A stretch of 64,000 nt of DNA from Blasia pusilla (Eukaryota). Made by a program: the position numbers and the translations under genes. The stretch is taken from contig CM114271.1 in the NCBI GenBank assembly GCA_050084515.1, positions 38,564,001 to 38,628,000 on the forward strand, written 5' to 3'. Of this stretch, positions 11,510-45,559 are shown one piece after another. Under the pieces are notes generated by a model. It ran no database searches. It saw only the letters and a program-made list of their open reading frames with translations, and was not told where the DNA came from. Every line of letters begins with the position of its first letter. The first letter of the stretch is position 1.

Positions 11510-14500
11510 GCGACAGATCACTACTTTTGCACTTGTGAGCGCCATGCCTACCGAGATGGTTCATGTAGTGGTTGGGGGCAAGGTCCAAGGGGATTGACAT
11601 ATCACGGGTAATCAGGAGAGACACCCTTCGACTTCTTGGGATGTCTTGCAGGTACGCCAAGAGATGGTAGCCACAACATCGAGCCTAGTATATGGTCCTG
11701 CACAACAAGGAGAGAAGAGTGCAAAGTTGGTTACAAGAGACCAATCAAGTTTTGTTGTTCGAGATGGGGTTACACCATAGCAACCGTAAATACCTACGGG
11801 AGAGAGTCCTGTAATGGTCATGATGGAGACTTAGGAGCCAAATATGGGCCTTGATTTGATAGGAGGAAATCGAAATTATATACATTAGTTCCTTAGGAAT
11901 CATAGAACTTTTTTTACGTTTAGTATGCATGATTTTGGTACGTTGAAGGGTCCAGGGATCCACATTGATTTGTCAAGCAACACGCGGATCTTTCGATGAC
12001 ACTACAAGTATAGTGATATGGAGAGAGCTTTGATTTAGAGTAGGAGCCATGACTTGGTTGGACCAAGATAAGTGGAGATTTTGCATGGAGAGTATGCATC
12101 TACCACTATCATGTCTGCCAAGAAGGATGTTCATGGCAATTGGACAGATAGGCACATGTGTGGAGACTACCGACTTATCAATCGGTAAACGAAGTCCAAT
12201 AGGTGTGTTATGCATACTCCAGAGGAGATCTTTGATACTATTGGGCATGCAAAGATCTTTATTTTGTTGGTTCTTCAAGCCAGATATCATTAGGTGCCTA
12301 TCAGATTTGAGGACATGCAGAAGAAGACATTTGGGATATTGATCCTCACATGAAGGATTGTTTGTACTGCTAGTGGTTTTTACCATTTGGGTTGAAGAAC
12401 GTCCTGGGAGAGCTTCAAAGGGTCATGGATAGGATCTTGGCACGTATGGATCTCGCGAGATATTACATCAATGACATCGTAGTCCTTAACGCCATGGTTG
12501 AGGAGCACGAGCGATATTTGGAGGAGGTGTTTTGACGATTGCAATAACAAGGGCTAAATCTAGGAAATTGCAAGTTCTTCTAAGATTACATTGAGTACTT
12601 GGGTCATATAATATACCCAGGTGGTCTCTATCTATCTCACACTCTACGCCCTACAAATGTGGGTCGAGTTTGTGCATTTATGGGATTGACAATATTCTAT
12701 CGATGGTACGTCAAGGGTTTCAGCTTGATTGCAAAGCCACTAACCTTGCTGACCAAGGTGGATCACAAGTGGCACTAGGAGGATGAACAGTGGATATCAT
12801 TTCATTTGCTTAAGGATAGGCTGACGTCCACACCCATACTGAGGAGACCTATAAGGGGGCGTTCTTTCCAATTGCATACAGATTGGAGTATGTTGGAGCT
12901 TGGAGCAGTGCTGACCTAGCATGACGATGAGGTTAGAGAGTTTGTGGTGGCTTATCCTAGTCACTCAAACAACATTACAAAGGCAAAGTATAGCTTGTAT
13001 GAGGGTGAGTACTTAGCTACAATGTAGACTGTCGCGCATTTCAGGTGTTACTTATCCGAAAACCCCTTTACCATCTTCACTAATCACCAACCACTTAAAT
13101 GGTTAATGAAGTTCGATAAGCTTAGATGGTAGCTTGCAAGGTGGGCTCTATTATTGTAAGAGTATGATTTTCAGGTGGTTCATTCACCTGGGACACCCAA
13201 CCAAGATGCGGATGGTTTGAGCCATAATCTATGCCCAAGTCAGTGAGATGCGACTTGAGCTCGTTGGCATTGAGAGAGTGATGAGGAGATGGTGTCTGGA
13301 TGGCACGCGTCAGCATATTTGGGCTTGTTTGCTACAGAGAGCTAGAGTGTTGAGACTTTGATGGCGAGGTTTGATGGAGAGCCCTTAGATCCAAAGGGTG
13401 GTGAGAAGGCGACAGGTGACCGAGATATCCATGAGGATGAAGTAGTCTTAGAATACTTGCATATTGGCAACGTCATGAGCATGGTAGATGCTAGAGAGCA
13501 CAATGGGATTTTACATCGAGCCAGACGATTTTGATGGGAGGGGACACATGTATTGCGAGTCAGCGAGGATGGTAGAGTACACGTAGTGCCTCATCCTTCA
13601 CACAGAGCAAGTTTGGTGCATCACGCCCACGAGGATTTTGGACACTTTGGAGTGAAGCATACGTACAACTTGCTCTAGATATGTATTTGTGGCAAGGCAT
13701 GTAGAGTGACGTTCAATAGTTTGTTTCCAAATACATGGTATGTGATTGGGTCATGGCATCGTTCAATGCTCCAACTCCACAATTATATCCAATGTTCATC
13801 ATGGGTTTAGCTTATAGATGGAGCTTGGATTTTGTATAACCTTTATCTTTGACAGAATGCCACAGTTATTATATGTCGGTGTTGGTCAAACACTTCTCAA
13901 AGTGGATAGAGTTGGTTGCATTGCTTGACAAAGTGAGTGAGGGAGTAGCGTTTTCCTTCTTCAATCGAGTGTTAAGTCATTATGGCGCATCAGCTGAGGT
14001 ATTGACAGACTACGATACGGAGTTTTGCATGGACTTTCAAGCCTTGTGTGATCAGGCACTAATTGATCATGGCACTACTTCACGAGATCATCCTAAGGCG
14101 GATGGACTAGTGGAGAGAATTTTGCATATGGTGAAGATAGGGTTACATAAGTATAGCTTGCAGAGAGGTCACTTAGGAGATTGGGACCTACAACTGCCGT
14201 GGTTGGCGATGGGATATAGATTCAACACGTAGGCATCCTTAACGTCGTTCTCACTGTATTTTTTGCTTTATGGCCGAGAGCCTGATTTACCTGTGGCCAT
14301 TTTTCATAATGCGAGTGAGGTGTTGAATCTTGATGATCTTAATGTATGGATGCGAGCAGTTCTTTGAGGGCTGAGTTATTTTGAAGAGTTATGCCCATGG
14401 CGTTTGAGAACTTGGAAATTGCGCAACATCGGGATAATTTGAGGTATGGGACTATCGAGGGAGGTGGTGATCGACTTACAATACGAAGGTTTCATCAAGG

Positions 14501-15167
14501 AGACTTTGTTTACTTGCAACAGACAACACCAACAACATTGGATATAATCGTAGGGCTCACCATCTTGAGAGTGCAAGATATTTTGCCATCTCGTATTCTC
14601 TTATTGGAGGGACGTAATGGTACGGTTTGGAAGGACCAAGTGCGTAACTGTGCGCCATGTCACCTTCATAACATTGAGGGTATAGTTGATCCGAGCTTAG
14701 CAATAGTTCCTACATACTTACGTTGTATGTTGTGTGGTTCTACCCGTGGTGCAGCCACAATATATGCTAGTCTGTGATGGTTGTTTGAGAGGGTGGCGCA
14801 TGGCATGTTCGACTTCACCTCTCACTAGGGTTACTCGGGGACGATGGATGTGCCCCATATATACATAGAAAAGATATTAGGTAATCATAGATCCATGGTT
14901 TTATATCTGATATGGAGGACAAGAATTTGACTAACAGTAGGGCCACATGAGCACTCGGCCTTTTTGCTCTTAGTGTCCTAGTGATAGGGATAGATGGTTA
15001 TCTGGAGTTAGAGGGACCTAACCACCAGCTAGGGGGACGATAGGAGATATTTTTGTACTCGATAGTCTCGATGTTTAGATCCATGGTTTAGCCTGGTATC
15101 TTGTGTATTTGTGTATATATTTGGTGATATTGTTGTATGTATTATAGCGATGTGTATGAGCACGACA
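11510..15167 (+). mobile_element. DNMT/PHD gypsy-like family, copy 2: 5'-truncated (starts just after the MTase), heavily decayed RT-RH-IN-PHD, ends at B
   Basis: Colinear with 27690-31349. Integrase fragments are ORFs 13849..14232 and 14391..14777. G-tract at ~15031-15039, B at 15040-15167 ending gagcacgaca. Confidence 0.9.
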
Positions 15168-18029
15168 CAGCTATCAAGTAAGAACCCCTCCTTGTGGCCA
15201 ATTTGAGCCCCACCTATAATCAAAGTTATCATATGTTATCAAAAACTTTACTCTCCAACTTGTTGATTCCTTGAAGATCCACATTAAGACATTGGTTCAC
15301 CTCTTTCCATGTTCTTAGAGATAGGCCCAAAATTTCCACTACTTTGCAAATATTTCCAATGTGTGCCACTCATCTCAACAATCCATTCTTGATATAAACC
15401 GATTGATTATCTTCTCTTCCCAATCCATACCTCTTTGATTGAATATGCTAATTCCAATATCAATGCCTTAAAATGTAATCTCTGAAGATTTAGACCACCT
15501 TCCACATTCTCTGCATTCATCTGAATAACAACTAAGTCAAACCCACCCTTAACATGAGAAAATATAGGTCTAGTACATCATAGGCAATACCTACCCTATC
15601 ATGTGTTTGGAAGGCTAAATTCTAGAAATATGAGAATATGCGACCCTCCCTTATTTTGGATATTTTATCTTTTTAACTGTTAAATTCCATCTCGTAAAAA
15701 AATTACAGAAATTATTTTTAATTTTTAAAAATATTTTAGATGATTATTTCATTTTATTTGTAAATTAGTGATTTTAAATTAGCCCTAAAATAGAAAACAA
15801 GATACACACGATATCCACGAAAATGATGGAGAAAACAATCTCAAATGTCACGGAGTGAATACGGTCACTGGCAAAGAGGTGACCGGTTACCACCTCACAC
15901 AGTTACCACTAGTGCTGGATCGATGATGGTCACAGTCAGTGGTACACAGGACAAACGGAGAGCTGTACAATGAACGCAAGCGGCAGCAGTCCGTCCGTCT
16001 AATCCAACCACACCAGCTTAGCAGTACTGACTTCCGGTAGCGTCGACAGTGGTCGACCGCCGGCCCCTGCCACCGTCCAGCGAAGTCGTAGGGACGGAGA
16101 GTTGTCGGGGGATGAAAGGTGCCCGGGCCGAGGGGGCGACGACCTTACTCACTCCCGAGTCCCGAGGCTTCTCCGTCGCTCGTGTACGGAGAGGAGAGCC
16201 TGTCTTCATCTTTTAGCGAGGGGTTTTTTCTCTTCTTTCCACAGGGCAGAAGGACGATTTTCTTCGCACGTCCGGGCAGATTCGATTGTGAGATTAGCGC
16301 ATCTTCCGGAAACCTAACTCCTCTTTAAGACAAAGCGACTGTCAATAAGAGCAGTAGATGCATGGCAGGTGGATCCACCAATTTTAAATAGGGATAAGAA
16401 AACTATGGCTAGTACAGCGTGTCAGCCTGTCAGGCACTCTCCCAGACTCATGCGTGAATGAAATGAAAAGGACCAAAACGCAATGATTAAAAGCATATTT
16501 TATTTGCTATATTATAATAGCTATTATATCATAAATCACGTCCCCACCTTAACCTTAACTGCGCTGTCTTACTAGTAGACTGGCGTACACCGCCATCTAC
16601 TCTCGCCGGCGAACGAACGAAAAAGTCCACCATAGCGGATGGATGTCAAACTTTCATAGCTTGTCGCCGGCTCAGACCCCTAATCTGCCGTTATCCTATC
16701 GCAGCGCTTAACGTTCCTCCTGAATCTGGCACTCTGCGTTGCGCTGTAAGATACTCAGACTGTGCCTACAACGCTTGGGGTACAAGAACATTCATGGGTG
16801 GACTTTACGATGACTTAATGCGTAAGCGCCAAGTAAAACGTATCAGGTTTGCTTCGACTTATGGTTAATTAATTGATTCAGTGTATATTTTAAGAGTGGA
16901 AATGTTGTCCAGGTCCGGGTATAATTAAAATATTCTTATTTGTTTCTTTTTATATTTACGAGACAAGTGAACCTCATTTGGATATGCTGCAACCATGAGA
17001 CAACAAAAACTCATGGTCAATTTTTCTGCAATTTACACAATATTTTAAACAAGTGTGGATTCCACGTGCTTTCAAGATGATGGAAACTACTCTAAAGTGG
17101 TGAATAATTTAATAAATCATAATTTTCAGGGCGTTAGTCATGGCTAAATTTTGGCACGTGTCAACTTTTATTTACTTATTTTTCTTGTACCCAGCCAAAT
17201 TTTAATAAAAAATGTTTCATTCATTTTACTATATTAAATATATTTTTTTAAAAATTTTAAAATCTTATGGAGAAATTTTGAATCATTATCATGTTCTAAT
17301 TTTCTGTCTAAATTTATCTTTTTTCGATATTTCACAAAATAAACCAATCTCCGTGCTGTGGAATGGAAGTAAGTGACATATACATCCATAAGAAACGTGG
17401 GTAGTTTTGGATGGACAAGAAAAAAAACGACGAGAATTTATAGAGGCCGTAAAAATTAATTTCAAGTAAATTTTGGAAGAGAAATTGAATACTATGAAAT
17501 AAAAGATAAAAGATAATTATATAATAGTAAAAAATTATATACTAAAAAAAATGAAAAGAATTTTACTTTTCTAAAATTCGCAAGCTTTCATTATGAAGGA
17601 TTTCTGAAAAACTATTTTGGATCCAAATGAATCACTTTCTTTTATTAATTGAGAGATTGGGGTTGAAAAATAAGAATAAATTTTTACTTTTTAATTAAAA
17701 ATATTTTATATTAATTTTAAATTAAAAATTACAATTATTCATAGATTTAAGCAAAAACTTATCTTTAATATTTACTCATCAACTCTATAATTTCAAATTT
17801 TCAACGTGTGTAATGTAACACTTCATAATATTCTCCATATGTGAAGTATTTTCATTTCCATTCATCCAGTTGAGTGTATCGCACGGGAAATGATATAGAA
17901 CAAAATTAGACATATGAAAATTATTTTGAAGGCATTGACAAATTGAAAGTCGTGGAAACTAACCTGTCTCTAATTGAGGAAATGTTTCCTAATAAACCCA
18001 ACCCTAAAACTACGATTACGATTGGAAAC

Positions 18030-20143: not shown

Positions 20144-23100
20144 TGAGTTTGACTTATTGGGGTTGGCAAGATTGGTTTGTGGAAGAAGGATCCTGCAAGA
20201 GCTAGTTGTACATTGTTATCGAGTTCTCTCATCGTTTTGACGTGATGTCAAGCCACTGTTTTACAATTTTAGTGGTTTCAGTGCCATCACCGAAGAAAGA
20301 TCATGCTTTTCAATCATGAAAATATATATGCTCTCACTCTCTATAACCTTTCATGACTGACCTCCAATGGATCTGTGGCCGGATAATGGATTCCATCTTG
20401 GAGTTAAAAAATGTTCAAATCTTTCATCGTATGTTTGAAGCATATTCATTATTGACACTGCGGGAGTAATATGAGCTCTTCGTCTTCCATATCCGATGAA
20501 GGATAGCTCGTAAGGTGTAATGCATGATTCTCAATGGAGATTATGAGGTCCATTGTTAACTTGCTTGATAATACACAAATCAAGATTCCAAACTAGTTGC
20601 AAGCCTCTCTGACATGGAATCTAGATATCATTCAAATATATAGCTCATAATCCTCTCAGAACTCTCGGCACTAAACTCTTATGGATCCAATGCGCGTATT
20701 TGAGGATAGATAAGAAACAAAACACTTCAACTTATTGAGCTAATAATAAGACCCTCGGATTATTGAGCACAAAAAAATTGATACAACTAAGTTTGGCCAG
20801 GAGAAGTTTTAGTAAATCCTCAAGTGCCTATGGTGAAAAAAACCTCTATCAAATGAACACATGCAATACCCATGGTCCAACGCAAAACCTTGGTGCCAAA
20901 AAACACTAAAAGAAGAAGAATAAGGTTTAGAGCATGGGGGGAAAACTACATATGAAGTGTCCCTTTGGATACTTTGAAAATCGACATAATGTCCTTGATG
21001 CACCAAGTCCAATCGTTGTCGGTTGCTTGAGAATCTTCAAGAATTGTTTTCAATTACTTGAGAAGCTTATGCGACTCATCACCTCTTCTATTAGGAATGC
21101 ATACATGAAGATGTCAATCCCACGATGGTTTACTTGTTTCATCATTCTTCACGACCGGTATACTTGTTTTGTAGATCTGCTTGATGAAGTCATTGATCCA
21201 GATTGGATTAACAAGTTTCTCTGAGTTCAGTCTTATGATCATATCCCAAGCCATTACATGTGTTCGATGCCAACGAGTATCTTGGAATTCAAGGCACGAG
21301 AAAGTGCAATCTAGGTGCAATCAAACATGAAATTGATGCATAGTAGTTGTTGTAGTCACAAGTGCATTTGTTGCTTGTGTGGCAAGTACTTCAAAACTCT
21401 AAAAATTAGATTCATTGTTTCAAAAATGAATAATTGCATAACTAGTAAGGTTTTTCGAGTACTTCTCTGGGTCATCTGCCTCTAATTTCCTTTTTTCATA
21501 AGTTTTCATCATATAATTCCACAACCCACAACTAATGACAAGTGGAGGAACCTCTTTGATCGGCATAATTGCATAGTTGATGACCTTTAAAAGATTTTAA
21601 CTCACTTTACCATAGCATGGCAAAGACAATGCACACCTTGCAAACTTCATAGGTCCTATTTTTCATATATAAGAAGCTACATATGCTATTCATTGAATAC
21701 AATGTCTTTCCAATTCATTGATCCATATGTCATATGTCATGTCTTTTAGAATAAATTGGTGAGATCTAGTAGAGCGCCTTCGTGAGTAGTGGAGGATAGG
21801 CTTAATAGATTGAGGATGACGTGTTGAGGCCCCGAGAAACCTGAGAGAGCAGGTTTCCCCTTCGTTTCGGCTCATTTGGAACCATATTGAGGAACTTCTA
21901 TTTTAGGTAAGTACCATTTTGAATATATGATCAACTTTATATTTTTGGTAAGTGGCCCTTGACCTCTTACATCAGGTCAAGATCCAAGGAGGTGACTTCA
22001 GAGCATAGGCTACCATGGAGAGAGCTTGGGAGAGGGGAGGGATATACCTCAAGGAGAGAGAGCTGAAGAACTCATTCTCTCTTTGTTGAACCTCTTGGCA
22101 TGAGGCGACGGAGCTATGGTCTTGCTTGCCTTGTGTGTGTAACCCAAACCTCTCATTAGGAGAGTGGGTTTGGTTTGACATTGAGAGACACATGTGAGAA
22201 CTTTAGTGTTGTGAGAGAGATTTTATCGTATTTTACAAAGAGAGAATAAGTGAGTGAGGGAGCTTCATGGGGGAGCTCGTTGATCACTCTCTAGTTTTGC
22301 AGATTGGGGATCATATTCCCCATTCAGCGGTTCATGGGAGTGCTCACCGGAGCAAGAGCCGTTTACTTGTGATGTTTCCTATGACGATTTTTTGTGTGAA
22401 AGAGTGGCAGGCGGAAGCGCTGCCCAATTTTTGATAGGGATTGAGTATGGGGGCAGGTTGACCCATGCTGGTGCTCTTGGGAGCACCATGAAGCTTGCTG
22501 ATTTGTGTTCTCATATGTTTTATCGTTGGGAGAAATCAGTGCGGAAGCGCTGCCGAATTATGTGTAGGAGAAAGAGACATTTGGCTTTACGAAAGTCCTT
22601 GTCAGTTTTCACTGGAATGTTTGATTCCAAATATTTTTTTACATTCTTGTAGATTTTTAAGCTATGCAGGTTGTGCAACAAACGGTGTGCAATTTGGAGT
22701 TGCGAGCAAAAAGTTATAGTCAATCTTGCAAAATTGCCATTGCTAGGCGATTTTTAGGGTTAAATGGTTCAAACCCTAAACCAGCCGCCGCGTTGTCATA
22801 GTTGCCGTCAACGGTCACCGTCGATGGTCAACCATCAACCATCACCGTCAATGGTCTGCCATCACCATTAATGGTCCATGATCCACCATCGGCCGCTGCC
22901 CGCTGCTCAGAGTTGCGTTCGTCTGTTGTCCACTCGTTGGTTGCCATTGCCGTCACTAGGGAGTGGAGGGTCTTCCACGACCACCGTTGATTCTCTGACT
23001 TGCGCCGCCACCATGGACTTTGGTTTGGCCACCACCGTCATCACACTTTCGTCATCAACCAATGATGGGAGATAACCCCGGGTTATGGTGTTTGAGTTTT

Positions 23101-23933
23101 CATTTCATGCTGCTATATATGCTATATAGTCGCTTGACAATGATCGAGTACCGTGTCGTGACGCCCGTAGCCGCAACGTGCCGCCAATTGCCGCGTCAAA
23201 CTGCATGTGGTTGCACCGCACCGTCTCGACCGCGGAGCCGCTCCTTCACTAAGGTGCAGAGCATGTGAATTTCTGATTGAGGAGGGTATGCCGTCGAGTG
23301 TCGTGTCGTTTGTAGCCGTTCCGTGCCGCACCGGACTGTTGGACCTGCACCGCACATCGAGGAGATTTGAGCAGCGTCAGTACAAGAGGAGTAGGACTTG
23401 CTAATTGGAGGAGTTGTCTTCAAGACCGAGTTGGGGTCGAGATTTGTAGTTGCCGAGGAGCAATATCGACATTATTATCAAGTTACCTATTATGGTCTCT
23501 CTTACCCTACACGTGTGAGGGATTTTCGGATATTGGGAAGTTATTTGGGATATTGGGTTTTGTGTTGATGCTAGTAGCATCGATGATGTATGGGTTTAGG
23601 GGACATAGATCTGTGTGGGATGTCTAGAGTTGAGGATGGTTTGTCGATGAGACAATAGATCGGTTGATTTGCCGCACCACGCTCCTTGTTGCCGCACAAC
23701 ACACGTCTCAGTGAGAGAGTGTAGATTGAGTGCCGCATGTTTAGTTTAAGTGATTGAGGGATTACTCACGAAATTGAGAGTGATCGTGTGAGAGGGGCAC
23801 GAGGGCCATCACAGCGTCCTTTTGGGATTTTGAGAGGCGAGGTAGTGGACCTGAGAGTAGCTCTGGAGGGTTTACCCGGAGTGGTGCGAGGTTTCGAGGA
23901 TCTCCACGTGAGAGACCACCTCGATCTCCTTTT

Positions 23934-25454
23934 GTGTCATCTTCAGACGAGGGGGAGCGTATAGAGGAGTGTGTTAATGATCCATTGTACACATTGAGTG
24001 ATCCTACCATTTGGGCGTACAAGATGGACGACCAAGGTAGAGGACCGCGTAGGTTTTTGGGTGTTGTAGGCACTATAGAGCTACACGACTGCATTGTGGA
24101 GTTTTGGAGTTGGTGTGACTCATAGCGGGCTAGGAACTCTAGAGAGTTCAACCCGTTTACAGCATGGAACGGTTTGTTCTAGCATTTAGAGGGGGCGCCC
24201 ATGGACGATTACCATGAGTTCTCCCACAGATATGCCCAGAAGATTGAGGCATGGTGACTCTACTATGACCCACACTATATGTCATGGACGAAGTCGTTCC
24301 CTGCTGAGGAGGAGGAGTCAAGAGAGGCTACTTTCTTTTCCACTAGTGATGTTTTAGGAGGGGTCACTCTCACTGGAGCAGTTGCACCATCTAGTCGGGT
24401 TCGTCCCACGTTCAACCCCGTGGTTGAGTTCTTCGCTGAGTTGAGGGCCCAAGGGGTACGGACGGAGAAGTTGCGGAGCATCCATGACTTCCAGAGACGT
24501 CCGGGTGAGAGTTTGGGTGAGGCTTACACTCGCTTGCGCCGGTTGATCAACGTCACTCAAGGGGTGACGGAGGCTCATGCTATCCACTCATGGTACGCGA
24601 TGTTGGACCGGACCCTGCGGACACAGGTGCGGGAGGGGGTGCTTCTTATGGACACCTCCCATACTTTGAGAGATGTTTTTAGGACCGCCAAGAATATTGA
24701 GCGCAACATGGCGGAGGAGAGCGTAGCCACCATGGGTTATGGGCAAGAGCAGTCACGATTTTCTGCACCACCTGTGCAGCAACGTGGACTCCGAGATATG
24801 TCGATTGTGGCACCACGAGCTCAGGGAGGATGGAAGGGCGTGCCTTAGAGACTCGCGTCTTCATATACGGCTCAGGTGCAGCCGACTACTATTACTTGTT
24901 GGTCATGTGGTGGAGCCCATCATCAACACGATTGCACTCGTCAAGATCATGGACGTGTGCCTCAACATGGAAGAGGAGATGGTGCTGCACCAGGAGGTTA
25001 TCAGTGTAACTATTGTCAGAGGTATGGTCATACACGCGCTAGGTATTTCAATTTACATCCTGATTTACGTCCGGACCAAGGGCCAGAGAGGGCACCAGAG
25101 CGAGAAGTGGATCCGGATGGGGCTAGAGGTCGTGCACCAAGTGGTCCCGTTGGGGGACGAGGAGCTAGAGTTTCCCGACAGGATGGTGGAGCTGCCCATG
25201 GAGGAGGTAGAGTCCCACCACCTAGATACGTCGAGGGAGATGTTGGGCGTGAGGCTAGGATGGCTGCTAAGATACAACAGCTACAGGAGCAGATTGCCGC
25301 TATGGCATTGAGGTTACCCGATGTCGGATCCGTGGCATTGACATCATATGGAGCAGACAGAGACATGGAGGATCCTTGTTGGATGTGCGGGATTGCCCAA
25401 ATGGAGGCTGCCGCAATTGTGACACATGGAGCAGCTGTAGAGTGGGATCCATAA
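23934..25454 (+). pseudogene. Gag of copy 3 with two Zn knuckles
   Basis: MHR-like FQRRPGESLGEAYTRLRRL (ORF 24279..24848). Knuckles CWSCGGAHHQHDC and CNYCQRYGHTRARY (ORF 24876..25454). Internal stops are present. Confidence 0.85.
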
Positions 25455-25957
25455 TGAGGGAAAGCCAGGAAACATACTAGGCTTCCTCAGTCTTTCACGT
25501 TGTCTGAGGTGGTGAGGACCCCATCGATGGGTCCTGATCAGAGTTGGTGATGTTGTTGGTGTGCAGGCATGGAGGGCGATGGAAGAAGCAAGTGCGACGA
25601 CTCCTATTGCTGATGCTCAAGAGGGGCATGTGTTGAGCACGTTGTTGGGGGCGGCCATCGTTGTATACCGCGCTCTTTTATTTTCTGCTTCCGATGTTAT
25701 GACGTTGGGAGGTACGCCCGCCAAGGTTTTTTGGCTGGCCGCTACGCTATGTGAGCGTGGAGTTGGAGTTCTTGCATCACGTTTGGAGGTGATTGTAGAG
25801 GAGGTGATGGATCTGCCCTTGGAGCGGATGCTCGGGCCGTCCACGTCAGATTCATGGCAGATTTAGGATGGCAGACATGCCTGCTAGACCCGCGATAGAG
25901 CGTGCCATGGTTTCTCCTGGTGTTGTGTTGCTAGATAACCAGGGAGAGGTCTTCTAG

Positions 25958-26310
25958 TTGGTGACTCCCGGAGGTAGAGCTTTTAGTCCGCAGTGTGTCT
26001 TGGTGGATTCAGGAGCGCAACCCCTAATGTTGGGGAAAGTGTCATTCAAAGGATTGGGCTTGACGAGAGCCGATATGGAGCGTTGTCCATTTCAGATACA
26101 GACATCCTTGGGTGGAGCGAGTACCACAAAGTATATCACCTGATAGGAGGTCGTGGTGAGGATTTTCCCGGGACATCCTACATATGAGTTCGTGGTGCGA
26201 GCCAAGGCGATAGTGATTGATGCAGAGTCCTACGACGTCTTGGTTGGTGGAGCAGTGTTATACTCGATGGGGTTTTCCCTAGATTAGTGGGAGGAGTCAA
26301 CGTCCTACAG
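25958..26310 (+). pseudogene. Aspartic protease (retropepsin) of copy 3
   Basis: VLVDSGAQPLMLG active-site motif, followed by a YDVLVGG C-terminal motif at ~26230. Confidence 0.85.
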
Positions 26311-26714
26311 ACCAGGATGGAAGTCAGGTGATGGGCGCCTTAGCTCATTACCTATTTGATTCACAGGTGCAGTGATCGAGCAACGTCCAGGAGAGATGGC
26401 GACCTTAGCAGCATTTAGTAGTGCCATCACTTGGCTTAGTGATTTGATTGAGGGACATGTCCATGCAGAGGATACTCCTGTTCTTGACATTTCTATGGAG
26501 AGGAGTGTCATGGTAGCCGCATCAGTTCGTGGAGGAGAGGTGCCGCTTTGGGTTTTGACTGAGGGGCTTCGACGCTTTGCCACTGAGCATGTGCAGATTG
26601 CGTGGAGCGAGACATTTGCACTAGAGTGTGACGGGTCAGAGGAACCCTAGGTAGGCAAGAGTGATGCTATGATCCCTTTGGACACCACCCCAATTGTGTG
26701 GTGCACCACATAAG

Positions 26715-27660
26715 GGTATTCGGGTGTTGGATCTCTTTGGAGGGATCAACATTGGGTTAGCTGTTGTTTTGGAGTGCGCGTGCAACAGTACCTGTATGTG
26801 GAGATTGATGATGTTACGAGGCGCGCTTCACTTCACCATGTGGCACTGTTATGCCTCAATTTTCCCGACTTGTTGTCTACGTCCGCCATTCAGGGTTACC
26901 AGAGTTCCCTACCGAGGGACATTTCATTGTTGGGGGTGTAGGACTTTGAGCAGGTAGGGACCATAGACTTGGTCATTGCTGGTTGGTCGTGTCAGGGCCA
27001 ATCGAGTGCTGGACGAGGTAGCGGGTTAGCTGACACTCGTTCTAGGTTGTTTTGGGAGATGATGCGGATCTTGCGACATTTACAAGAGGATCAATCTCGT
27101 TCTCCAACATACATTTTGGAGAATGTGCCAATTTTGGGCAATTCGAGGTTCCGCGTGGTGACGAGTGCACATCAAGTGCGCGCATGGGTCGGCCCGGCAG
27201 TGTTGTTAGATGCAGCGAATGTGGGTTCACGAGCATATCGCCAACATCTTTGGTGGACCAACTTGGTACCACATGAGGTATTGCGGAGGGCTTATGCGAG
27301 AGTGGAGCGTCCCTCTAATTTTTGGGTGGATTCTATATTGGATCCGGGCGGTCAATCACAGGCAGTGAGGAACGATGATCGACCGCCATTGACTTTGGTC
27401 AATAGGATTGGCATGCCACTAGCCGCCTTTCCCACATTGGTGAGTTTCCCGCTTCCTATACATTCAAGGAGGCCGAACCTGGCTTGGTTTGGGATGACCA
27501 CGTACAGAGGTTGGTGGAGCCCAAGGTCGATGAGCGAGAGCGAGCGATGGGATTCCCCCCAGGAGTGACAGAAGTACCGTCACTATTGGAGGCATCACGA
27601 TGTCATGTCTTGGGTCAGGCGATGGACCTGAATTGCTTGACATGGATTTTCAGCTTAGGA
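26715..27660 (+). pseudogene. DNMT3-like C5 methyltransferase domain (copy 3)
   Basis: RVLDLFGGINIG, VIAGWSCQGQ (P>S), SRLFWEMMR, YILENVP, DAANVGSRAYRQHLWWTNL, ERERAMGFPPG, HVLGQAMDL. Frameshifted. Confidence 0.92.
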
Positions 27661-28079
27661 GTAGTTGAGCAGCGTCGTTTGAGGATACGACAAATCACAG
27701 TTGTTGTGTTGGTGAGCCCCATGCCTACCGAGATGGTTGAGGCAGTGGCTGGGGGCAAGACTCGAGGAGATCGACACACGAGGGGTGATCAGGAGAGACA
27801 CCCTTGGACTTCTTGGGATGTTTTGCAAGTACGCAAGGAGATGATAGCCACAACATCGAGCGTGGTTTCAGAAATTGCACGTGGAGATGGGAGTTCTTTT
27901 GTGCAAGACGGGGTTGCACCATAACAACCACCAACATCCGCGCTGGAGAGTCCTATCGTAGTCACAATGGAGACTTGGGAGCCAAATATGGACCCTAAGT
28001 TGACAGGAGGAGAGCGACGTCAAATACACCGGTTCCTTAGGAGTTATAGGAGTTGTTTTGCATTTAGTATGCATGATTT

Positions 28080-29400
28080 GGGTACGCTGAAGGGTCCAGG
28101 GATCCGCATTGAGTTGTCGAGTGACACGTCGATCTTCTGACGACCCTATAGATACAGTGACATGGAGAGGGCTCTCATTCACAGTAGGATCCAGGACTTG
28201 GTTGGAGTAGGACTAGTGGAGATGTCGCATGGAGAGTATGCATCTGCCATTGTCATGCTCGCCAAGAAGGATGTGCATGGCAACTGAACGGATAGGCGAA
28301 TGTGTGGAGATTACTGACCTATCAATCGGCAGACAAAGGCCGATAGGTATGCCATGCCCACCCCTGAGGAGATCTTTGATGCGATTGGGCATGCAAAGGT
28401 CTTCAATTCATTGGATTTGCGATTCGGATACCATGACCTGCATATCAGATTGGAGGACGGGCAGAAGACGACATTTTGGGGCATCGATCCTCACGGGAAG
28501 GATTGTTTGTACTAGTGGCGGTTCTTACCATTCGGGTTAAAGAATGCTCCGGCTGAGTTTCAGAGGGTCATGGATAGGATCTTGGCACGTCTGGATTTTG
28601 CTAGGTGTTATATTGATGACATCGTAGTCTTTAGCGCAACGGTTGAGGAACATGAGCGACATCTACAGGAGGTGTTTCAACAATTGCAGTTACATGGGCT
28701 GAAGCTACATCCAGGCAAGTGCAAGTTCTTCTACGACCAGATTGAGTACTTGGATCATACAATATACCCTGGGGGCCTTGGTGTGCAATAGACAAAGGTA
28801 GAGGCTATTTCACGCATTCCACGCCTACAGATGTGAGTCGAGTTCGTGCATTCATGGGATTGGTGAACTTCTATCGACGGTACGTCAAGGGTTTCAGTTT
28901 GATTGCGAAGTTGCTAACCTTGATGACCAAGGTGGACTAGGAGTGAAACTGGGAGGATGAGCAAGAGAGAGCATTTCACATGCTCAAGGACAGATTGACA
29001 TCCGCGCCCATATTGAGGAGACCGATCAGGGGTCGTCCTTTCCAGTTGCATATTGATTGGAGTATGTTGGGGCTTGGAGCTGTGCTCACCCAACATGAAA
29101 ATGATGGTAGAGAGTCTGTGGTGGCTTATGCTAATCACTCAAACAACGCTGCAGAGGCAAAGTATAGCTTGTATGAGGGTGAGTGCTTGGCTGCAGTGTG
29201 GATTATCGCACATTTCAGATTTTATCTATTTGGCAATCCCTTTACTATCTTTACTGATCATCAGCAACTTAAGTGGTTGATGGAGTCCGACAAGCTTATA
29301 GGGAAGCTTGGGGGTGGGCTCTTTTGTTGCAGGAATATGACTTCCAGGTGGTGCATAGACCTGGGACGCTCAACCAAGATGTAGATGGTTTGAGCCGTAA
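28080..29400 (+). pseudogene. Reverse transcriptase and RNase H of copy 3
   Basis: YIDD at 28609-28620, LKLHPGKCKF, LHIDWSMLGLGAVL, YEGECLAAVW, FTDHQQL. Confidence 0.92.
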
Positions 29401-29779
29401 CACATGCCTGAGTCAGCGAGATGCGACTCGAGCTCGTTGGCATGGTGAGAGTGATGAGGAGTTGGTGCTAGGATGGCATGCGTCAGCCTATTTAGGCTTG
29501 TTTGCTATGGAGAGCCAGATTACGGAGACTTCGATGGCGAGGTCTGATGGAGAGTCCTTAGATCCAGAGGTTGGTGAGGATACGATAGGTGGCCAAGACA
29601 TTCACGACGATGGAGTGATCTTGGAGTACCTACGTAGTGGCAGCGTCGCGAGCACAGTGGGTTCTAGAGAGCGGGATCAGATCCTACAATGAACCAGATG
29701 GTTCCGGTGGGAGGGCACACATGTGTTGCGAGTGTGGGAGGATGGTAGAGTGCGTGTAGTGCCTCATCCTTCGTAGAGA

Positions 29780-31039
29780 GCACGTTTGGTGCGTCATGCC
29801 CACGAGGAGTTAGCTCATTTTGGAGTGAAGTGGACGTACAACTTGCTCCAGATTCAGTAATGGTGGCGAGGCATGCAGACTGACGTTCAACAGTTTGTTT
29901 CCAGATGCATGGTGTGTGATCGAGTCTAAGCATCGTTCAATGCTCCAACTCCACAGTTGCATCCACTTCCAATCATGGGTTTAGGTTATAGATGGAGTTT
30001 GGATTTTGCAGGACCTTTGCCTTTGACGGAGCGCCATAGTCGTTATATGTTGGTGATGGTCGAGCACTTCTCAAAGTGGATAGAGTTGGTTGCATTGCCT
30101 GACAAAGTGAGTGAGGAAGTTGTGTATGCCTTCCTAGATTGAGTGTTGAGTCATTAAGGCATACTAGTTGAGGTGTTGACAGACCAGGGTATAGAGTTCC
30201 GCAGGAAGTTTGAGGCCTTGTGTGATCAAGCACTGATCGACCACCGCACTACTTTGCGAGATCATCCTGAGGCAAATGGACTAGCGGAGCGGGTTGTGCA
30301 GACGATGAAGAGAGGACTATGCAAGTATGGCTTGCAGAGAGGTCACCTTAGAGATTGGGACCTTCACTTGCCCTGGTTGGCGATGGGATACAGATTCAGC
30401 ATGCAAGCATCCATAGCGTCTTTCTTACCGTACTTTTTGCTTTATGGCCGTGAGCTAGATTTACCAATGGCCATTCATCGAGATATTCATGAGGTGTTGA
30501 ACCTTGATGATCCTGATGTATGGATACGAGCATGTTCTAAGAGGGCTGATTTATTTCGGAGAGTGATGCCCATGGCGTTTGAGAACTTGGCGATTGCGCA
30601 ACATCGGGATACGTTGAGGTATGCGACTATTCGGGGAGGTGATGATCGACATACTATCTGGAGGTTTCATCAGGGAGACTATGTCTACTTGCAGCAGACA
30701 ATACCCACGACGTTGGATGTGACTGCAGGGCGCACCATCTTAAGAGTGCGTAAGTTTTTTCCATCCGGTGTTCTCTTATTGGAGGGACGCGATGGTATGG
30801 TTTGGAAGGACCATGTGCGTAACTGTGCGTCATGTCATCTTCCAAACATTGACAGTAGAGTTGATCCGAGCTTAGCAATAGTTCATGCAGGCTTGCGGTG
30901 TATGTTGTTTGGTTTCGCCCGTGGTGCAGCCACTATGCTAGTCTATGATAGTTGTTCGAGAGGATGGCATATGGCATGTTTGACGCCACCTCTCACTAGG
31001 GTTCCTCAAGGACAATGGATGTGTCCCAGATGTACATAG
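29780..31039 (+). pseudogene. DDE integrase with C-terminal PHD finger (copy 3)
   Basis: HAHEELAHFG/CMVCD zinc motif, WSLDFAGP, LTDQG, GLAERVVQT, RFHQGDYVYL and a PHD at ~30892-31039. Confidence 0.92.
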
Positions 31040-32059
31040 AGTAGGTAGTTTTATATTTTGACTTGTGTCTGTGACATGGATGAGAAGAAGGCGACTAGCG
31101 ATGGGGCCACGTGAGCACCCGACCTTCTTGCTCTTAGCGTTCAAGAGATGTATGTCATGGTAGGTAGGAATAGATGGCTATCTAGAATTAGAGGGACCTA
31201 ACCCCCAGCTAGGGGGGCGATTGGAGATATTTTGGTACTTCTTGACTCGTTGTTTGGATGCCATGAGTTAGCATGGGATCGTGCGTGTTTGTGTGTGTGT
31301 GTTCGGTGACAGCGGGGTATGTTGTGTAGCGATGTGTATGCGCACGACACATACGTAGAAGACAAAACCCAAAATTGTCATTAGCTGCCACATCCTAACT
31401 CTGATTAGCTTCCAAAAAACAAGAATATTTGCTCACACAAATTATAATTAGCCTCTAGTATGAAGTGAAATTAGTTGCCAAAAAAATTATGAATAGCCAT
31501 TGTTTCTCAACTTGGTCAACTATTCTCAATTATAAATAGTAGTAAAAAGTAGCCATCGTCTATACACAAATGACTATTGTCAAGTATCAAGGCATTCTCT
31601 AACAATAGGGATCACAAATGGTTGTGTTGAGGAAATCACTTCTTCATAGCATCTAATTCTGGAATCTCAAAAATCTCTATAAACTACTTTGCATTTTTAT
31701 ACTAGGAAAATATCACAATTGTTATTGAACCTTACTTGAGGATATCTATTTACATCTATAAGTTGTTAAATGAGGACATACAATGTAGAATCCCAAGTCC
31801 TTCCATAAATAATAATTGGAAGTATCACTAGATTTGGTGATTGCATGATTTAGTTATAAACGTCTCTCCAAAATGCTAGACCAAATAGCTAATAAACCAA
31901 TGCTTATCTACAAAGAGGCTAGGACATTTATACGGTTTGGGTTAAGAAAAGAAAAATCAGATACCACTCGTGCTCCATCTCTATCCATGTTTGATAAACA
32001 TCCTCTATCTTACTCTCTCTTCCTATAAAGTTTAAGATTACTGATGATTGTTATAATTA

Positions 32060-32745
32060 TTCCCTCAAACTCATGAATTAGTGACAAGACTCATCAATCG
32101 CTAAACCCCTTCGGAAAGGCTCGTGGCCAAGTCATTATCCCAAGAGTGGTAATCCACTCTCATTGAAAGAGTAACCAAGTCCAATACCATAATTTCAAGA
32201 ATGACCAACACAACTCTTCTAAGATAAGATGTCTCTCCAAAGTAGTTGACTCCACACTCCTCAAACTCCTCAAGAATGGATCATGGCCAAGCTATTCTCC
32301 TAAGAGGGGTAATCCACTCTTATTCGAAGAGCAACCAAATTCGATATCATTATTTTAAGAATTCCAAAGACAACTCGAGAAAAATGGAATTCAAGATAAT
32401 GAATCTTTGAAGGTCCTTCCTCTTTGTATATTCATGAAGGATCTATAACAGTATAAAATAATGACAATCTTATCTTGTGCCACATGGGCTTCTCTCAAAG
32501 CTTAGCCAATCCCATTTGGATATAGATAGATTTCTTTTTATTTCTTCCTAAACGATCATCATAAAACCACTCCATATCCTTCCAACCATCCTAACTACCC
32601 TAGTCTGAACTTATTTATCAACTATGATTATTTTATTTTTTTATCATTAATAGGTCAAGTCACTACTTTACTTTTATGCTTCTTATGCCTCATTTCTGAC
32701 CTATTTTCCTAGAGTTACACCCAAATAAATGAGATATAAAACAAT
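32060..32745. repeat. Inverted-orientation copy of the 3790-4530 repeat
   Basis: For example cttagccaatcccattt and tttgaaggtccttcct mirror aaaatgggatcggctaag and aaaggactttcaaagg at 4090-4210. Subrepeats ccaag..att.tcc.aagag.ggtaatccactct occur at ~32127 and ~32287. Confidence 0.7.
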
Positions 32746-37445: not shown

Positions 37446-38181
37446 AGGGGGACAATTTCCTGGTCTTGGTGTACATTTGTAAGTATATTTTGTTTGTGTG
37501 TGAATCTACCCATATGTTGGGAAGATCAATGTTGTGTTTTGTGTAGATATGAACAGAAACATGAATTGTGTATGCGCATAACATTTGTCACATCTTCCTA
37601 AGCTAACATGGAGAGTTATACCGTGTCGGAAATATAGAGGGTTAGTAGGTTGTTTGGGTGTAACTTGATCATGAGGTGTCAGATGAGGCTGACAAATTTT
37701 AAGAGTCTTATCTTTTGTTATTCTCAGCCAAGTGACCATATGATCAAGTCAAGGGTCATTAGGTTACTTGTGCATGCAAGTTATCGTTTGGATGGTTCTT
37801 TTTTGGGGAAGAGATTTTGCCTCTTGCGAAGGGTATAAGAGAAGGAGAGAGGGCTTTCCCAAGCCATCTTTCTCATGTTGAGCCTTAGGAGCACCTCTCT
37901 TGTTTAGTTTTTAGTTGGAACTAAGGTGCTAAAGTTTAGATACCCTTATGGCGAAGGATGGATGTGGCTTGCTATCATATACAAATTTGAGAGTGAAGTT
38001 TTCCGTATGAGTTGTTTTTACTTGGATTTTACAATTGTGTGGTCTTAGTATGCATGCATAGATGATCTTAGAAAATTTTGTTTCTGTGTGTATCTACCCG
38101 TGTGTTGGGAAGATTTATATTATATGTTGTATAGATATGACTAACGATGTGAATTGTGTAGTAATGTGTATGCGCACCACA
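37446..38181 (+). mobile_element. 3'-terminal remnant of the DNMT/PHD family: PPT, B1 (37452-37583), TT, A2 (37586-38030), B2 (38031-38181)
   Basis: The tagggg(g) tract is followed by B1 ending gcgcataaca, then tt and tgtcacatc (same start as A of copy 1). The A segment shares ccaagccatctttctcatgttg...ggagcacctc with the copy 1 A. B2 ends gcgcaccaca. Confidence 0.82.
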
Positions 38182-41100
38182 TAGAGCATATCTTTAGATA
38201 TTTTAAGAAACTATATAAAATTTCCCACATTTATCCTAAATGATTGTCTTTTTTTTCATCTCACATTTCTCATACCAAAATTTTCCAAAAGATACAATAT
38301 ATGTATTATATAAATAAAGTATTGCAACATACTACAAAAATTATTTTCTATCCTACAAGATGAAATAAATGGAAGAGAATAGATGTATTTCAAAAATTTA
38401 GAATGAAGCTTAATATTACTTAAAACCTTTAATTCTGAGAAAATAATGAAGTATGAGTACGGTAATTTTTTTAAAAATTAGGCTTTTTGGATAAAAGCAA
38501 TGAGAAGATGTGTAATGAATCAAAGAAAACAAAACATAAAGCAAGAATCTTTCATGATTGCGAGTGCTACTAGTAGTATTAATAATCCAAAATAAAATAG
38601 CATCTTGTATGTTTCCCATGAGTTATAATATCAAACCCACTCCTGAAAAAATTTCAAGAAAGTTTGGCATATAAATATTAGGACATCAAAATCCCATTTT
38701 GGACTTTACTTCTATAGTCTTTGTCAAGATCCGCCATTATATTTAGAATTAACCCCAAAATAGGCACTTAGTTTTTAGACCATTATCTCACATATATGTG
38801 TATAGAGTAAAAAGAATTTACATGAATAGTATTGACTACTACTAAAGTCTTTACATCAAATAGAACAAAGTCTAATATTAATCTAAAGATATGAACAACA
38901 AACTATGATGATACAAGGTCATATTTAAGTACGAAATATCTTATACTATAGAAAAATAAAATCATTTGCAAGTGTGTATGGATTGAAATATATATTAATT
39001 TATAGAACCATTAAGTTATTTATAATAATTTATATTTTCATATATAATTGGATTATTTTTATTTAAGAATATATCTTGATGTACCCAAGTATATAGGGTA
39101 TTAAATTAAACATTTTTTATGACTGGAAATATATGTGACATAATTAAGAAAAAAATTATAAGATTTCTTATTTAAATGATTTTTATCAACTCTGATTGTA
39201 ATAAATTCTTTATGGAGATCCCAAAAATCAAATAGATGAGTACACATGAAATATCTTCATCAAACGCATCAACATAAAAAAAATATTAGCACATGGCTTT
39301 GATGGATTACAATAAATAATCAAAGATAAAGAACCTTAATCAAAGATAAGAATGAATCAAAAATATTATTACCATTAATTACACTCTAATGAAGCCTACA
39401 TTTGAAGGAAAAATGAACTTACTCATTTTTTGCAAATCATCTAGAAAACCCACTCCTAAAATTTATAATTACAAGTTTTCCTAATGCACATTATTATACA
39501 TAACTCTTAAGATATCTTAGAGAAGTTCCATCTACTAAACTTCTCTTTATTATATTATAAATTTCCCTTCTATGCAAATATTTGACCTTCTTCATGCAAT
39601 CATGTCAATGAGAGAATGTGGAATAGTCATCAAAGTATATGAATACATTTAAAATCCAGAAATATTGAAATCTAGCAGGACATGCATATGATCATGATGA
39701 TTGCAAAAGCATTTGTAATAATCTTCAAAGGAAATGAACAACTCCAATATAAATTAAAATAGGTGTAGAAGGTTTCTTTTTTTTAATTCTCATTTGCAAG
39801 ATAAAGAAAATGTATCATGATCATGAAGTTATAAGGAAACTTTTTAAAAATATCCAAACATTGTAAATTAATATGAAAGTTCTAATTTTTCACAACTCTT
39901 ATTCAAGGGGCCACTTTTAAGACTATGTATGCCACAAGTTTCTCTTTTGTCCAAAGTCTCATCTAGATTATACATGAACGTTTACATCTAGTGGCTATTA
40001 TCTTTCTACGAAACGATATTATATGGCATGTAAATGGAGGTTGGTATACATACTCCAACATCATACCAATTTTATACCACAATATTTTCACCGAAAATCT
40101 AAGGATTTTTAATAGTTTTGGATGTTTCATCAAAGATTGTTTTGTGATGCCTTTGTCACGACTGTTAGGATAGATCGGTGGGATCTAGCAAAGCATCTGC
40201 AAGAGTAGTGGAGGATAGGCCCAAGAGGTCGAGGATGACTTTTTGAGGCCCTAGGAAATCTAAGAGAGCAGGTTTCCCCTTCGTTTTGGCTCATTTGGAG
40301 CCATATAGAAAAACTTACTATTTCAGGTAAGTTTCCATGTTAGGGATAGTTGAATTTCCACTTTGGGAAGTGGCCCTTGACCCGCTACAGCAGGTCAAGA
40401 GCCAAGGAGGTGACCTACGAGCATAGGTTACCATTGAGAGGGTTTGGGAGAGGGAAGCGGGTATACCTCCAAGAGAGAGCTTGAGACCTCAATGTCTCTT
40501 TGTTCAACCTCTTGGCATAAGCCAACGGAGCTATGGTCCCTTGCTTTGTGAGTGTAACCCAAGCCTCTCATTAGGAGAGTGGGTTTGGTTTGACATGAGA
40601 AAGAGTGCACACCTTTGAGAGCTATGGTGTGAGATGGTGTAGAGAGAGATTGGATCTTACTTTACAAAGAGAGAATGAGAGAGCTCCATGGGGGAGCTCG
40701 CTGGTCACTCGTTGTTTTTGCACGCTGGAGACCGTGTTCCCCGTTCAGAGGCTCATGGGAGTGCTCACCGGAGCAAGGGTTTCTTTGATTGTTCTTTGCA
40801 TTTGTCGATTTTTGGTGTGGAAGAGTGGCCCGCAGAAGCGCTACCCAGTTTCTGATAGGGATTGATTATGGGAACGGGTTGCCCCATGTTGGCGTCTCGA
40901 AAGCACCATGTATCCAATTGATTTGTATTTCTACATGTTTTACATTTTCTTTGGAAGAAATCAGCCTGGAAGCGCTGCCAAATTTTATGTAGGAGAAAGA
41001 GATATTGGGCTTTACAACAGTCCCTGTCAATTTTTACTGGAATGTCAAATTATAAATATTTTTTGATGCTATTGCAGATCATAAAGCTATGCACATTGTG

Positions 41101-42328
41101 CAAGAAACAATGGGAAATTTGGAGTTGCGAGCAAAAAGTTATGGTTAATCTTGCAAAATTTCCATTGCTAGGCAATTTTAAGGATGAAATTGTTCAAACC
41201 CTAAACCAGTCGCCACGCCGGCGACGGCCGTCACCGTCATAGTCACCATCAATGGTCCGCCCTCAAAGGTCAACTATCACCGTCAATAGTCCACCGTCTG
41301 TTTTCCACCCTTTGGTTTCCATTGCCTCCATTACGGAGTGGAGGGTCTTCCACGACGTTCGTTAATTCTCTGACTTGCGTCGCCACCATGTACTTTGTTT
41401 TGCCCGGCACCATCATCGCAGTTTCATCATCAACCAATGATGGCAGATGACCTCCGGTTATGGTGTTTAAGTTTTGATTTCATGCTGGTATGTTGTGATT
41501 GGTAGCCGCTCGACGACGATCGAGTACCGTGCTGTGACGCCCGTAGCCGCGACGCGTCGCTGATTGCTGCGCCGTGCCGCTCGTGGCCGCACCGCAACGT
41601 CTCGATTGTGGAACTGATCCTTCACTAAGGAGCAGAGCGTGTGAATTTCTGATTGAGGAGGGTATGCCACCGAGTGCCGCACCCCATTCGCGAGTGCCGT
41701 GTTGTTTGTAGCCGTTCCGTGCTGCCATTGTCGCACCGGACCGCTCGACCTGCACCGCACATCGAGGAGGTTGAGCAGCGTCAGTACGAGAGGAGCAAGA
41801 CTTGCTGATTGGAGGCGTTATATTCACAACCGAGTTGGGGTCGAGATTTGCAGTTGCTGAGGAGCGACATCGACATGTGTTCAGGTTACCCATTCTGGTC
41901 CTTTACCCTCCACGCGTGAGGGATTCTGGGATTTGGGTAGTTTATTTGGGGATATTGGGTTGTGTGGATGCTGAGAGCATCATTCATGTATGTGGTTTAG
42001 GGGACATAGACCTGTGCGGGATGTCTAGAGTTGAGGGTAGGTTGTCGATGAGATGATAGCCTGGTCGATTTACCGCACCACGCCGCATGTTGTTGCACGT
42101 TACACGTTTCCGGGAGGGAGAGTGTAGATCCAGTGCCGCATGTTTGGGATGAGTGATTGAGGGATTACTCATAAGGTTGAGAGTGATCAGGTGAGAGGGT
42201 CACGAGGGTCATCACGACGTCCGTTTGGGTCTTTGAGAGGCGAGGTGGTGAATATGAGAGTAGCTCTAGAGGTTTTACACGGAGTGGCGCGAGGTTCCAA
42301 GGGTCTCCACGTGAGGGACCACCTCGAC

Positions 42329-45340: not shown

Positions 45341-45559
45341 TACTGTTTGAACCTTAGTAAACCGTGCCTCAAACTTATGTTGGCCACCTTCTCACCCTAC
45401 TTCAACTTCCTCAGGTATTCCCCGCTTGAGCATCCTTCATATATCCTTCACTTAATCCTTCTCTCCAGATCTGTTTCCTTAGGGAACATTGCTCTCAAGA
45501 CTGTGTCGTCGATGGCATGTGTTCCTCCTTGCGACTTTAACACATCTGGAATCACATTA

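Follow-up and report, generated by a model that had tools for sequence, protein, structure and literature searches.

A 64-kb window of the Blasia pusilla genome (64,000 nucleotides of contig CM114271.1, assembly GCA_050084515.1, forward-strand positions 38,564,001 to 38,628,000) carries relics of a green-lineage Ty3/gypsy long terminal repeat (LTR) retrotransposon family whose coding region holds a non-permuted C5 cytosine methyltransferase domain, present in three copies and one fragment. Self-comparison showed the window to be a nest of retrotransposons, with five copies of this one family (designated A, B, C, E, and F). Judged from its sequence and from the modelled fold of a relative, the domain appears to be a non-permuted, DNMT3-like methyltransferase (here abbreviated DNMT). 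The kind has been known since 2018, when KnitGypsy-Dnmt3 was described from Klebsormidium nitens (de Mendoza et al., 2018; PMC5890265), and the window elements add a new member to it. We are highly confident of the identity and anatomy of the element. To the overall explanation, which blends these with production of the polymerase part by stop-codon readthrough and with the element methylating its own cDNA or the site of its insertion, we assign a probability of roughly 0.55.

A preliminary description of this DNA, made from sequence alone, had proposed that the methyltransferase motifs occur in canonical order in three copies. Six-frame translation and tblastn with an intact relative, P0003, confirmed this order for motifs I, IV, VI, VIII, IX, and X, and the domain limits first given lay within about 50 nt of the refined ones for copies A, B, and C (Table 1). 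The motifs read DLFGG in motif I, ENV in VI, RLWWTNL in VIII, DERERAMGF in IX, and VLGQAMD in X. Two phrases quoted in that description, VLDLFGGISTG and RRQVLGQAM, do occur in the window, but they belong to copy A and not to copy B, whose coordinates headed it. The Pfam search that had been proposed as a check was positive; with the copies read through (X at stops), PF00145 was matched by A at 42.3 bits (E 8.3e-11), by B at 41.6 bits (1.4e-10), and by C at 27.4 bits (2.9e-6), all above the gathering cut-off of 22 bits. When all 230 stop-to-stop open reading frames (ORFs) of at least 70 amino acids (aa) in the window were scanned, one matched PF00145 (26942-27565, E 4.8e-10), and ORF1 of an intact relative, L047, scored 51.1 bits. 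The FxGxG of motif I, which binds S-adenosylmethionine, is kept (DLFGGIS in A, DLFGGIN in B and C), as is ILENVP of motif VI in all three copies. Motif IV reads PCQ in A, SCQ in B, and PYQ in C, and Pro-Cys is thus gone from two of the three; both substitutions, proline to serine in B and cysteine to tyrosine in C, are of the C-to-T transition type. Copy A is the best preserved, its lesions being a single frameshift near 9986-10007 and a single TGA inside the domain, while PCQ and ENV are retained; copy B has two frameshifts and stops, and copy C eight stops and one frameshift. All window copies are pseudogenes.

The closest solved structure to copy A alone was DNMT3A (E 4.4e-4). A family profile built from an alignment of 20 members (46-76% identity) and searched against the Protein Data Bank (PDB) matched DNMT3A at 9.4e-19, DNMT3B at 2.7e-17, and DNMT3C at 3.3e-17, followed by DRM (6e-8 to 7e-7), M.HaeIII (9.6e-7), M.HhaI (2.6e-6), and DNMT2 (1.2e-3); neither DNMT1 nor CMT was found in this search at E<=1. 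An AlphaFold2 model of P0003, a close relative and not a window copy, had a predicted local distance difference test score (pLDDT) of 80.1 and a predicted template modelling score (pTM) of 0.84, and all of its Foldseek matches listed were DNMT3A, 3B, or 3C (E 3.4e-16 to 4e-14; target TM-score at most 0.79). Profile and fold thus agree with the DNMT3-like assignment made at the outset. The accompanying claim, that the domain is not permuted, also held, since profile positions 2-183 and 272-301 are collinear with DNMT3A whereas DRM aligned by its C-terminal half only. Across the 20 members, FxGxG, Pro-Cys, ENV, and an RxR-like motif VIII are preserved; the W and P of AGWPCQG and the E and N of ENV are invariant, and the Cys is present in at least 90%, so that the family keeps the PC and ENV looked for in its consensus. 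The domain resembles cellular DNMT3A/3B/3C, its nearest structures by both methods, in motif order, in a short VIII-IX region, and in the wording of motifs VIII, IX, and X. It differs from them in identity (~20-24%), in its place within a retroelement polyprotein, and in its company, as no PWWP or ADD reader domain turned up when 38 related polyproteins and ORFs were scanned with Pfam. Plant DRM2, from the second-best PDB group, is a DNMT3-derived de novo methyltransferase; however, DRM is circularly permuted, its C-terminal half aligning to the N-terminal half of the family domain, and the family is not.

DNMT2 acts on tRNA, and the domain might similarly be an RNA 5-methylcytosine methyltransferase, acting on the genomic RNA or the tRNA primer and not on DNA. 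Gag-level production beside the RNA-packaging protein, as proposed below, would suit an RNA substrate, and RNA methylation has been raised by de Mendoza et al. for DNMTs borne by long interspersed nuclear elements (PMC5890265). However, the profile E-values cited above favor DNMT3A over DNMT2, the fold matches are DNA-bound DNMT3 structures, and the DNMT3-type domain of SymbioDIRS-Dnmt3, from Symbiodinium, methylates DNA, having produced de novo CG methylation in yeast (PMC5890265). On this evidence an RNA substrate is improbable.

The domain had been regarded as a fixed part of the family rather than a one-off capture, and the searches uphold this. By word-based search, 174 proteins of similar length and a further 77 of greater length were retrieved, the named carriers being Marchantia polymorpha (many proteins), M. 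paleacea, Riccia sorocarpa, Calypogeia fissa, Sphagnum troendelagicum, and S. fallax. In an exhaustive profile search the number of matching proteins was 11853 at E<=1e-3 and 2129 at 1e-10, and at 1e-30 there were 467 clusters; many of the matches are polyproteins of 1000-3456 aa, and one is annotated as the 'pol' of a chlorophyte, Scenedesmus sp. No Klebsormidium-named protein was among the family search matches listed. Within the window, the domain lies in the same place in four copies, on both strands, and an unrelated gypsy element at 42579-49645 has no DNMT domain by Pfam or tblastn. We also considered whether a piece of host DNMT3 might lie beside, or have been captured by, one element copy, or whether the arrangement might be a chimera of assembly or annotation. 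Nothing beyond the general frequency of such chimeras speaks for this, and it was rejected as next to impossible, given the recurrence at one position in four window copies and in proteins and contigs of several other organisms, the 467 clusters with their many long polyproteins, and the unrelated neighbor that lacks the domain. Two matches, P0033 and P0399, are source-labelled as bacterial metagenome-assembled genomes (Candidatus Obscuribacterales and Minisyncoccia); because their sequences are pieces of gypsy polyproteins, they are most likely eukaryotic contigs that were misbinned.

The order of domains in the element is gag, protease (PR), DNMT, reverse transcriptase (RT), RNase H (RH), integrase (INT), and PHD finger, and relatives from Marchantia and from environmental sequences are collinear with the window copies. 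PF00078, PF17917/PF17919, and PF00665 follow one another in the order that defines Ty3/gypsy elements, and the LTRs are direct repeats of about 445 bp with the termini TGTCA...TGACA, the pair of copy E being 92.4% identical. As initially proposed, the DNMT lies between protease and RT, with a DSG motif upstream (copies A and B) and RT starting about 290 nt downstream. No Pfam protease match was obtained in the window copies, even at E<=5, and the protease was therefore assigned by the DSG motif and by homology to relatives P0156 and P0139, which match PF13650. The PHD finger (PF00628) follows the integrase at 5710-5838 (-), 30929-31033 (+), and 52907-53041 (+), and at aa 990-1034 of L047 ORF2; it is retained in nearly all long relatives, and the Pfam list of one, P0403, has both a chromodomain and a PHD finger. 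Chromoviruses, in which the integrase of a gypsy element is followed by a chromodomain, are alike in having a histone-tail reader joined to the integrase C terminus, whereas here the reader is a PHD finger, presumably with a targeting role. Copy E is split by the unrelated gypsy element mentioned above (its LTRs are 98% identical, its ORFs nonetheless fragmented) and has an internal deletion, corresponding to B 25033-28755, that takes out PR, DNMT, and the start of RT. Since PR and part of RT are also gone, copy E could have been mobile only in trans. No target-site duplication of copy E was found.

Relatives outside the window fall into two architectures. The first, PR-DNMT-RT-RH-INT-PHD, is that of the window copies and the bryophyte proteins; the second is RT-RH-DNMT-(G-patch)-INT-PHD, as in P0175-P0189, P0194, and P0197, with a Tudor domain in addition in one protein. 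The best-matching named proteins for the second architecture are from the chlorophytes Monoraphidium neglectum and Cymbomonas tetramitiformis, 44% and 39% identical, respectively, to its DNMT part. In a tree of 118 DNMT domains ('quick' IQ-TREE with Shimodaira-Hasegawa-like approximate likelihood ratio test, SH-aLRT, support only; unrooted, no outgroup), a single branch (SH-aLRT 99) split the two architectures, and copy A fell inside a 41-row group (SH-aLRT 99) that contains every named bryophyte row, from liverwort and moss alike. One row, P0136, is labelled as the second architecture yet lies within the group of the first, probably owing to a faulty gene model. The two positions of the domain would be explained either by a move within the element or by two captures. 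An ORF of at least 400 aa on the matching strand was found in 9 of the 80 metagenome loci fetched, from which it follows that most copies elsewhere are also decayed. Intact elements do exist among the relatives; for the example L047, no LTRs were found within its 9.3-kb contig.

The ratio of nonsynonymous to synonymous substitution rates (dN/dS) between copies had been named as a further check, with a value near 1 as the unfavorable outcome. With stop codons dropped, and with post-insertion decay inflating the ratio, dN/dS for the DNMT domain was 0.13 for A-B (dS saturated at 2.6), 0.21 for A-C, and 0.46 for B-C, i.e., not near 1; the corresponding values for RT-RH were 0.11, 0.16, and 0.36. 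Among intact relatives, one pair of which is unsaturated (dS 0.22), the DNMT-bearing end of ORF1 gave 0.15-0.23, versus 0.06 for ORF2. By these estimates the domain appears to be maintained by purifying selection that is somewhat looser than on pol, in agreement with the Ka/Ks of <0.2 reported for the K. nitens gypsy elements (PMC5890265). They also bear on the proposal that the protein is a catalytically idle scaffold in the manner of DNMT3L, one that would recruit or stimulate a host DNMT3 or DRM or just bind chromatin. DNMT3 enzymes do form oligomers with inactive partners, as the titles of DNMT3A-DNMT3L structures state, and no activity of the K. nitens domain was seen in yeast (PMC5890265). 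However, catalytic residues with which a scaffold could dispense (FxGxG, Pro-Cys, ENV, and the RxR-like motif VIII) are kept in the 20 members, and the dN/dS of 0.15-0.23 likewise argues against an idle role, leaving it little chance of being correct.

Between DNMT and RT, the coding region is interrupted by a stop codon in the DNMT frame, followed by Gln, about 36-43 codons ahead of the first conserved RT motif. Each of the four window copies spanning this place (A, B, C, and F) has the stop. The comparison covered 41 junctions in which the RT motif survives, two of them from window copies A and B and the other 39 from metagenome loci. The junction codon was TAG in 27, TAA in 12, and TAC in two, i.e., a stop in 39 of 41, and CAA or CAG came directly after it in 40. 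The stop recurs in at least four separate lines, namely window copies A and B, a large group of loci reading KVFA*QPM, the loci L045, L047, and L050 (about 49% identical), and Marchantia gene models, two of which (P0124 and P0126) terminate exactly at it. In intact L047, ORF1 (1369 aa, PR and DNMT) ends at TAG and is followed in the same frame by ORF2 (1047 aa, RT-RH-INT-PHD).

The sequence UAG-CAR-YYA is the type I readthrough motif of leaky stops in plant viruses, and in gammaretroviruses readthrough is known ahead of the reverse transcriptase (PMC3542737). The element is like these systems, exemplified by the tobamovirus replicase and gammaretroviral gag-pol, in having an in-frame TAG or TAA with CAA or CAG right before RT, and unlike them in that the stop follows protease and DNMT and not gag, and in that most copies have CCC in place of YYA. 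Full stop-CAR-YYA matches number six of 41, window copies A and B among them, while 33 of 41 read CAA CCC, with the last base off YYA. This departure is what favors the alternative that there is no readthrough, and that RT-RH-INT-PHD comes from a separate transcript or from reinitiation, or that the two ORFs are functionally separate genes. Against it, ORF2 follows in the same frame right after the stop, with no nearby start codon requirement met (L047 and L045), CAA or CAG is next in 40 of 41 junctions, and the arrangement resembles the leaky stops before gammaretroviral RT and plant-virus replicases (PMC3542737). We consider this alternative unlikely, although appreciably less so than an RNA substrate or an idle scaffold. 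Readthrough remains the preferred reading; from the sequence, Gag-PR-DNMT would probably be a product that ends with the DNMT, pol arising by readthrough. The original wording, that the domain is embedded in the polyprotein, is accordingly right in placing it within the coding region, but one polyprotein would exist only given readthrough, as the stop splits DNMT from RT.

The nearest described system, KnitGypsy-Dnmt3, is an LTR gypsy element whose non-permuted DNMT3-type domain lies 'in the Pol polyprotein ORF'; like that of the window family, the domain keeps the catalytic residues and is under purifying selection (PMC5890265). It differs in host, a charophyte alga, whereas copy A of the window groups with liverwort and moss sequences. 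It also differs in its repeats, which are arranged as in DIRS elements according to the legend of Fig. 4c (PMC5890265), as opposed to the direct LTRs here; inverted repeat pairs in the window are all between oppositely oriented copies. A third difference is the stop between DNMT and RT, as neither 'readthrough' nor 'frameshift' occurs in the accessible part of the 2018 text (PMC5890265). Compared by published description and not by sequence, the window elements belong either to the same family as KnitGypsy-Dnmt3 or to a sister family. SymbioDIRS-Dnmt3 is alike in being a retrotransposon-borne DNMT3-type domain, the only one with demonstrated de novo CG methylation, and unlike in its DIRS backbone (with tyrosine recombinase) and dinoflagellate host; its acquisition was independent according to the authors (PMC5890265). 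Streptophytes in general are mentioned in PMC12344493 and in a 2026 preprint (10.64898/2026.05.21.726589). No description of bryophyte or chlorophyte members, of the second architecture, or of the stop was found in the literature searched, in which the 2018 supplements and figures were not covered.

Taken together, we propose that active members would make Gag-PR-DNMT as their main translation product and RT-RH-INT-PHD by occasional readthrough of the stop. The methyltransferase would then be made in Gag and not Pol amounts and packed into the particle, where, once freed by the protease and supplied with S-adenosylmethionine, it may methylate cytosines de novo in the new cDNA or at the insertion site. 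Through its PHD finger, the integrase may tether insertion to a particular state of the histone H3 tail, and new copies would be born already marked like ordinary methylated repeat DNA. That the element methylates its own cDNA or the place where it inserts is the less secure part of this proposal, plausible but on balance doubtful. Several observations weigh against the proposal. None of the window copies could make an enzyme, and copy E, which is without the DNMT, indicates that the domain is not needed in cis. The reader domains PWWP and ADD are missing from the relatives scanned, and no methylation was obtained with the K. nitens domain in yeast, a result its authors call inconclusive (PMC5890265). 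Regarding selection, the saturated A-B comparison and post-insertion decay distort dN/dS. As to the stop, most junctions depart from the full readthrough motif in the way described, most of the junction loci are closely related, so that the counts are not independent, and the part of P0162 examined between DNMT and RT is free of stops.

Table 1. Features of the DNMT-bearing gypsy family in the window (positions counted from its first nucleotide).
Feature	Position	Strand	Details
Copy A, whole	5025-10939	-	internal 5506-10939, 3' LTR about 5025-5505; 5'-truncated in protease region
Copy A, integrase then PHD finger	5710-7149	-	PF00665 3.9e-14; PHD 5710-5838
Copy A, RT and RNase H	7331-8924	-	PF17917 1.4e-30, PF00078 1.8e-25; 380-aa open frame 7331-8470
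Copy A, stop TAG CAA CCA	8961-8963	-	
Copy A, DNMT3-like domain, best preserved	9204-10177	-	translation, PF00145, tblastn
Copy A, ENV	within 9750-9767	-	
Copy A, PCQ motif, intact	9882-9902	-	
Copy A, protease region	10290-10939	-	LDSGA at 10877-10891
Copy F, whole, 5'-truncated, RT-RH-INT-PHD	10936-15169	+	self-comparison, tblastn
Copy F, remnant, C-terminal third of DNMT only (motifs IX-X)	10957-11307	+	self-comparison, tblastn
Copy F, stop, then Gln-Pro	11778-11780	+	
Copy B, whole	21735-31349	+	5' LTR 21735-22181, internal region to 31349
Copy B, gag-like region	24039-25535	+	tblastn, Marchantia P0124 aa 9-490, 41% identity
Copy B, retropepsin-like protease region	25865-26300	+	DSG at 26006-26014
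Copy B, DNMT3-like domain, pseudogene	26715-27675	+	translation, PF00145, tblastn
Copy B, motif I	26727-26750	+	
Copy B, motif IV AGWSCQG	26978-26998	+	
Copy B, ENV	within 27113-27130	+	
Copy B, motif VIII	27245-27265	+	
Copy B, motif IX	27529-27555	+	
Copy B, motif X	27607-27627	+	
Copy B, stop TAA CAA CCA	27922-27924	+	
Copy B, RT and RNase H	27961-29381	+	PF00078 1e-21, PF17919 2.4e-30
Copy B, integrase then PHD finger	29930-31036	+	PF00665; PF00628 4.3e-7, PHD about 30929-31033
Copy E, whole	40153-53812	+	LTRs 40153-40599, 53364-53812; family parts 40153-42327, 49643-53812
Copy C, whole	55546-61104	+	internal to 60277; 3' LTR-like 60282-61104
Copy C, DNMT3-like domain, heavily decayed	56005-56975	+	translation, PF00145, tblastn
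Copy C, motif IV PYQ	56281-56301	+	
Copy C, stop TAG, next codon decayed	57234-57236	+	

Some further features of the window were recorded. Copies A (-) and F (+) lie head-to-head at 10930-10960, F being cut inside the DNMT and A in the protease region, a pattern that points to rearrangement more than to two clean insertions. At its other end, copy F stops exactly at the boundary between internal region and LTR, without an LTR. Beyond the LTR at the 3' end of copy A (about 5025-5505), the internal tail appears a second time (4887-5024), after which comes ~1 kb that starts TCACTTCTTCATA. The same ~1 kb follows the internal end of copy B past a 282-bp AT-rich insert, B 31632-32733 matching A 3889-4890, and the sequence after that internal end showed no detectable likeness to the 5' LTR of B. 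In the five DNMT-family copies the observed/expected ratio for CpG was 0.54-0.76 and the TpG+CpA excess 1.23-1.28, versus 0.97 and 1.04 in the young unrelated gypsy element; together with the two C-to-T type changes in motif IV, this is consistent with long-term methylation and deamination of the old copies, the methylating agent not being indicated. The flanks between elements have a GC content of 32-38%, compared with about 50% inside the elements, and the stretch 38001-40000, just upstream of the 5' LTR of copy E, is very AT-rich (GC 0.26).

Hosts fight transposons chiefly by cytosine methylation, which makes a transposon with its own de novo methyltransferase a paradox. The window itself adds no living copy; the main gains come from its relatives, in breadth, in intact copies, and in the conserved stop. 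The gypsy-DNMT3 kind is not limited to one charophyte, as it is common in liverworts and mosses and reaches the chlorophytes, and the conserved stop places the methyltransferase with Gag, with which the enzyme appears to be co-expressed. More tentatively, and with the odds against the scenario as a whole, these elements might represent a very old gypsy lineage, widespread in green plants, with a complete 'write and read' chromatin kit (DNMT3-type domain and PHD finger, in some members with G-patch, Tudor, or chromodomain), in which the DNMT occupies two positions, the bryophyte branch makes it at Gag level before a leaky stop, and some members, in liverworts, mosses, and green algae, are active to this day and methylate their own new copies. 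If true, the purpose of transposon-borne DNMTs would be testable in Marchantia, a tractable land plant.

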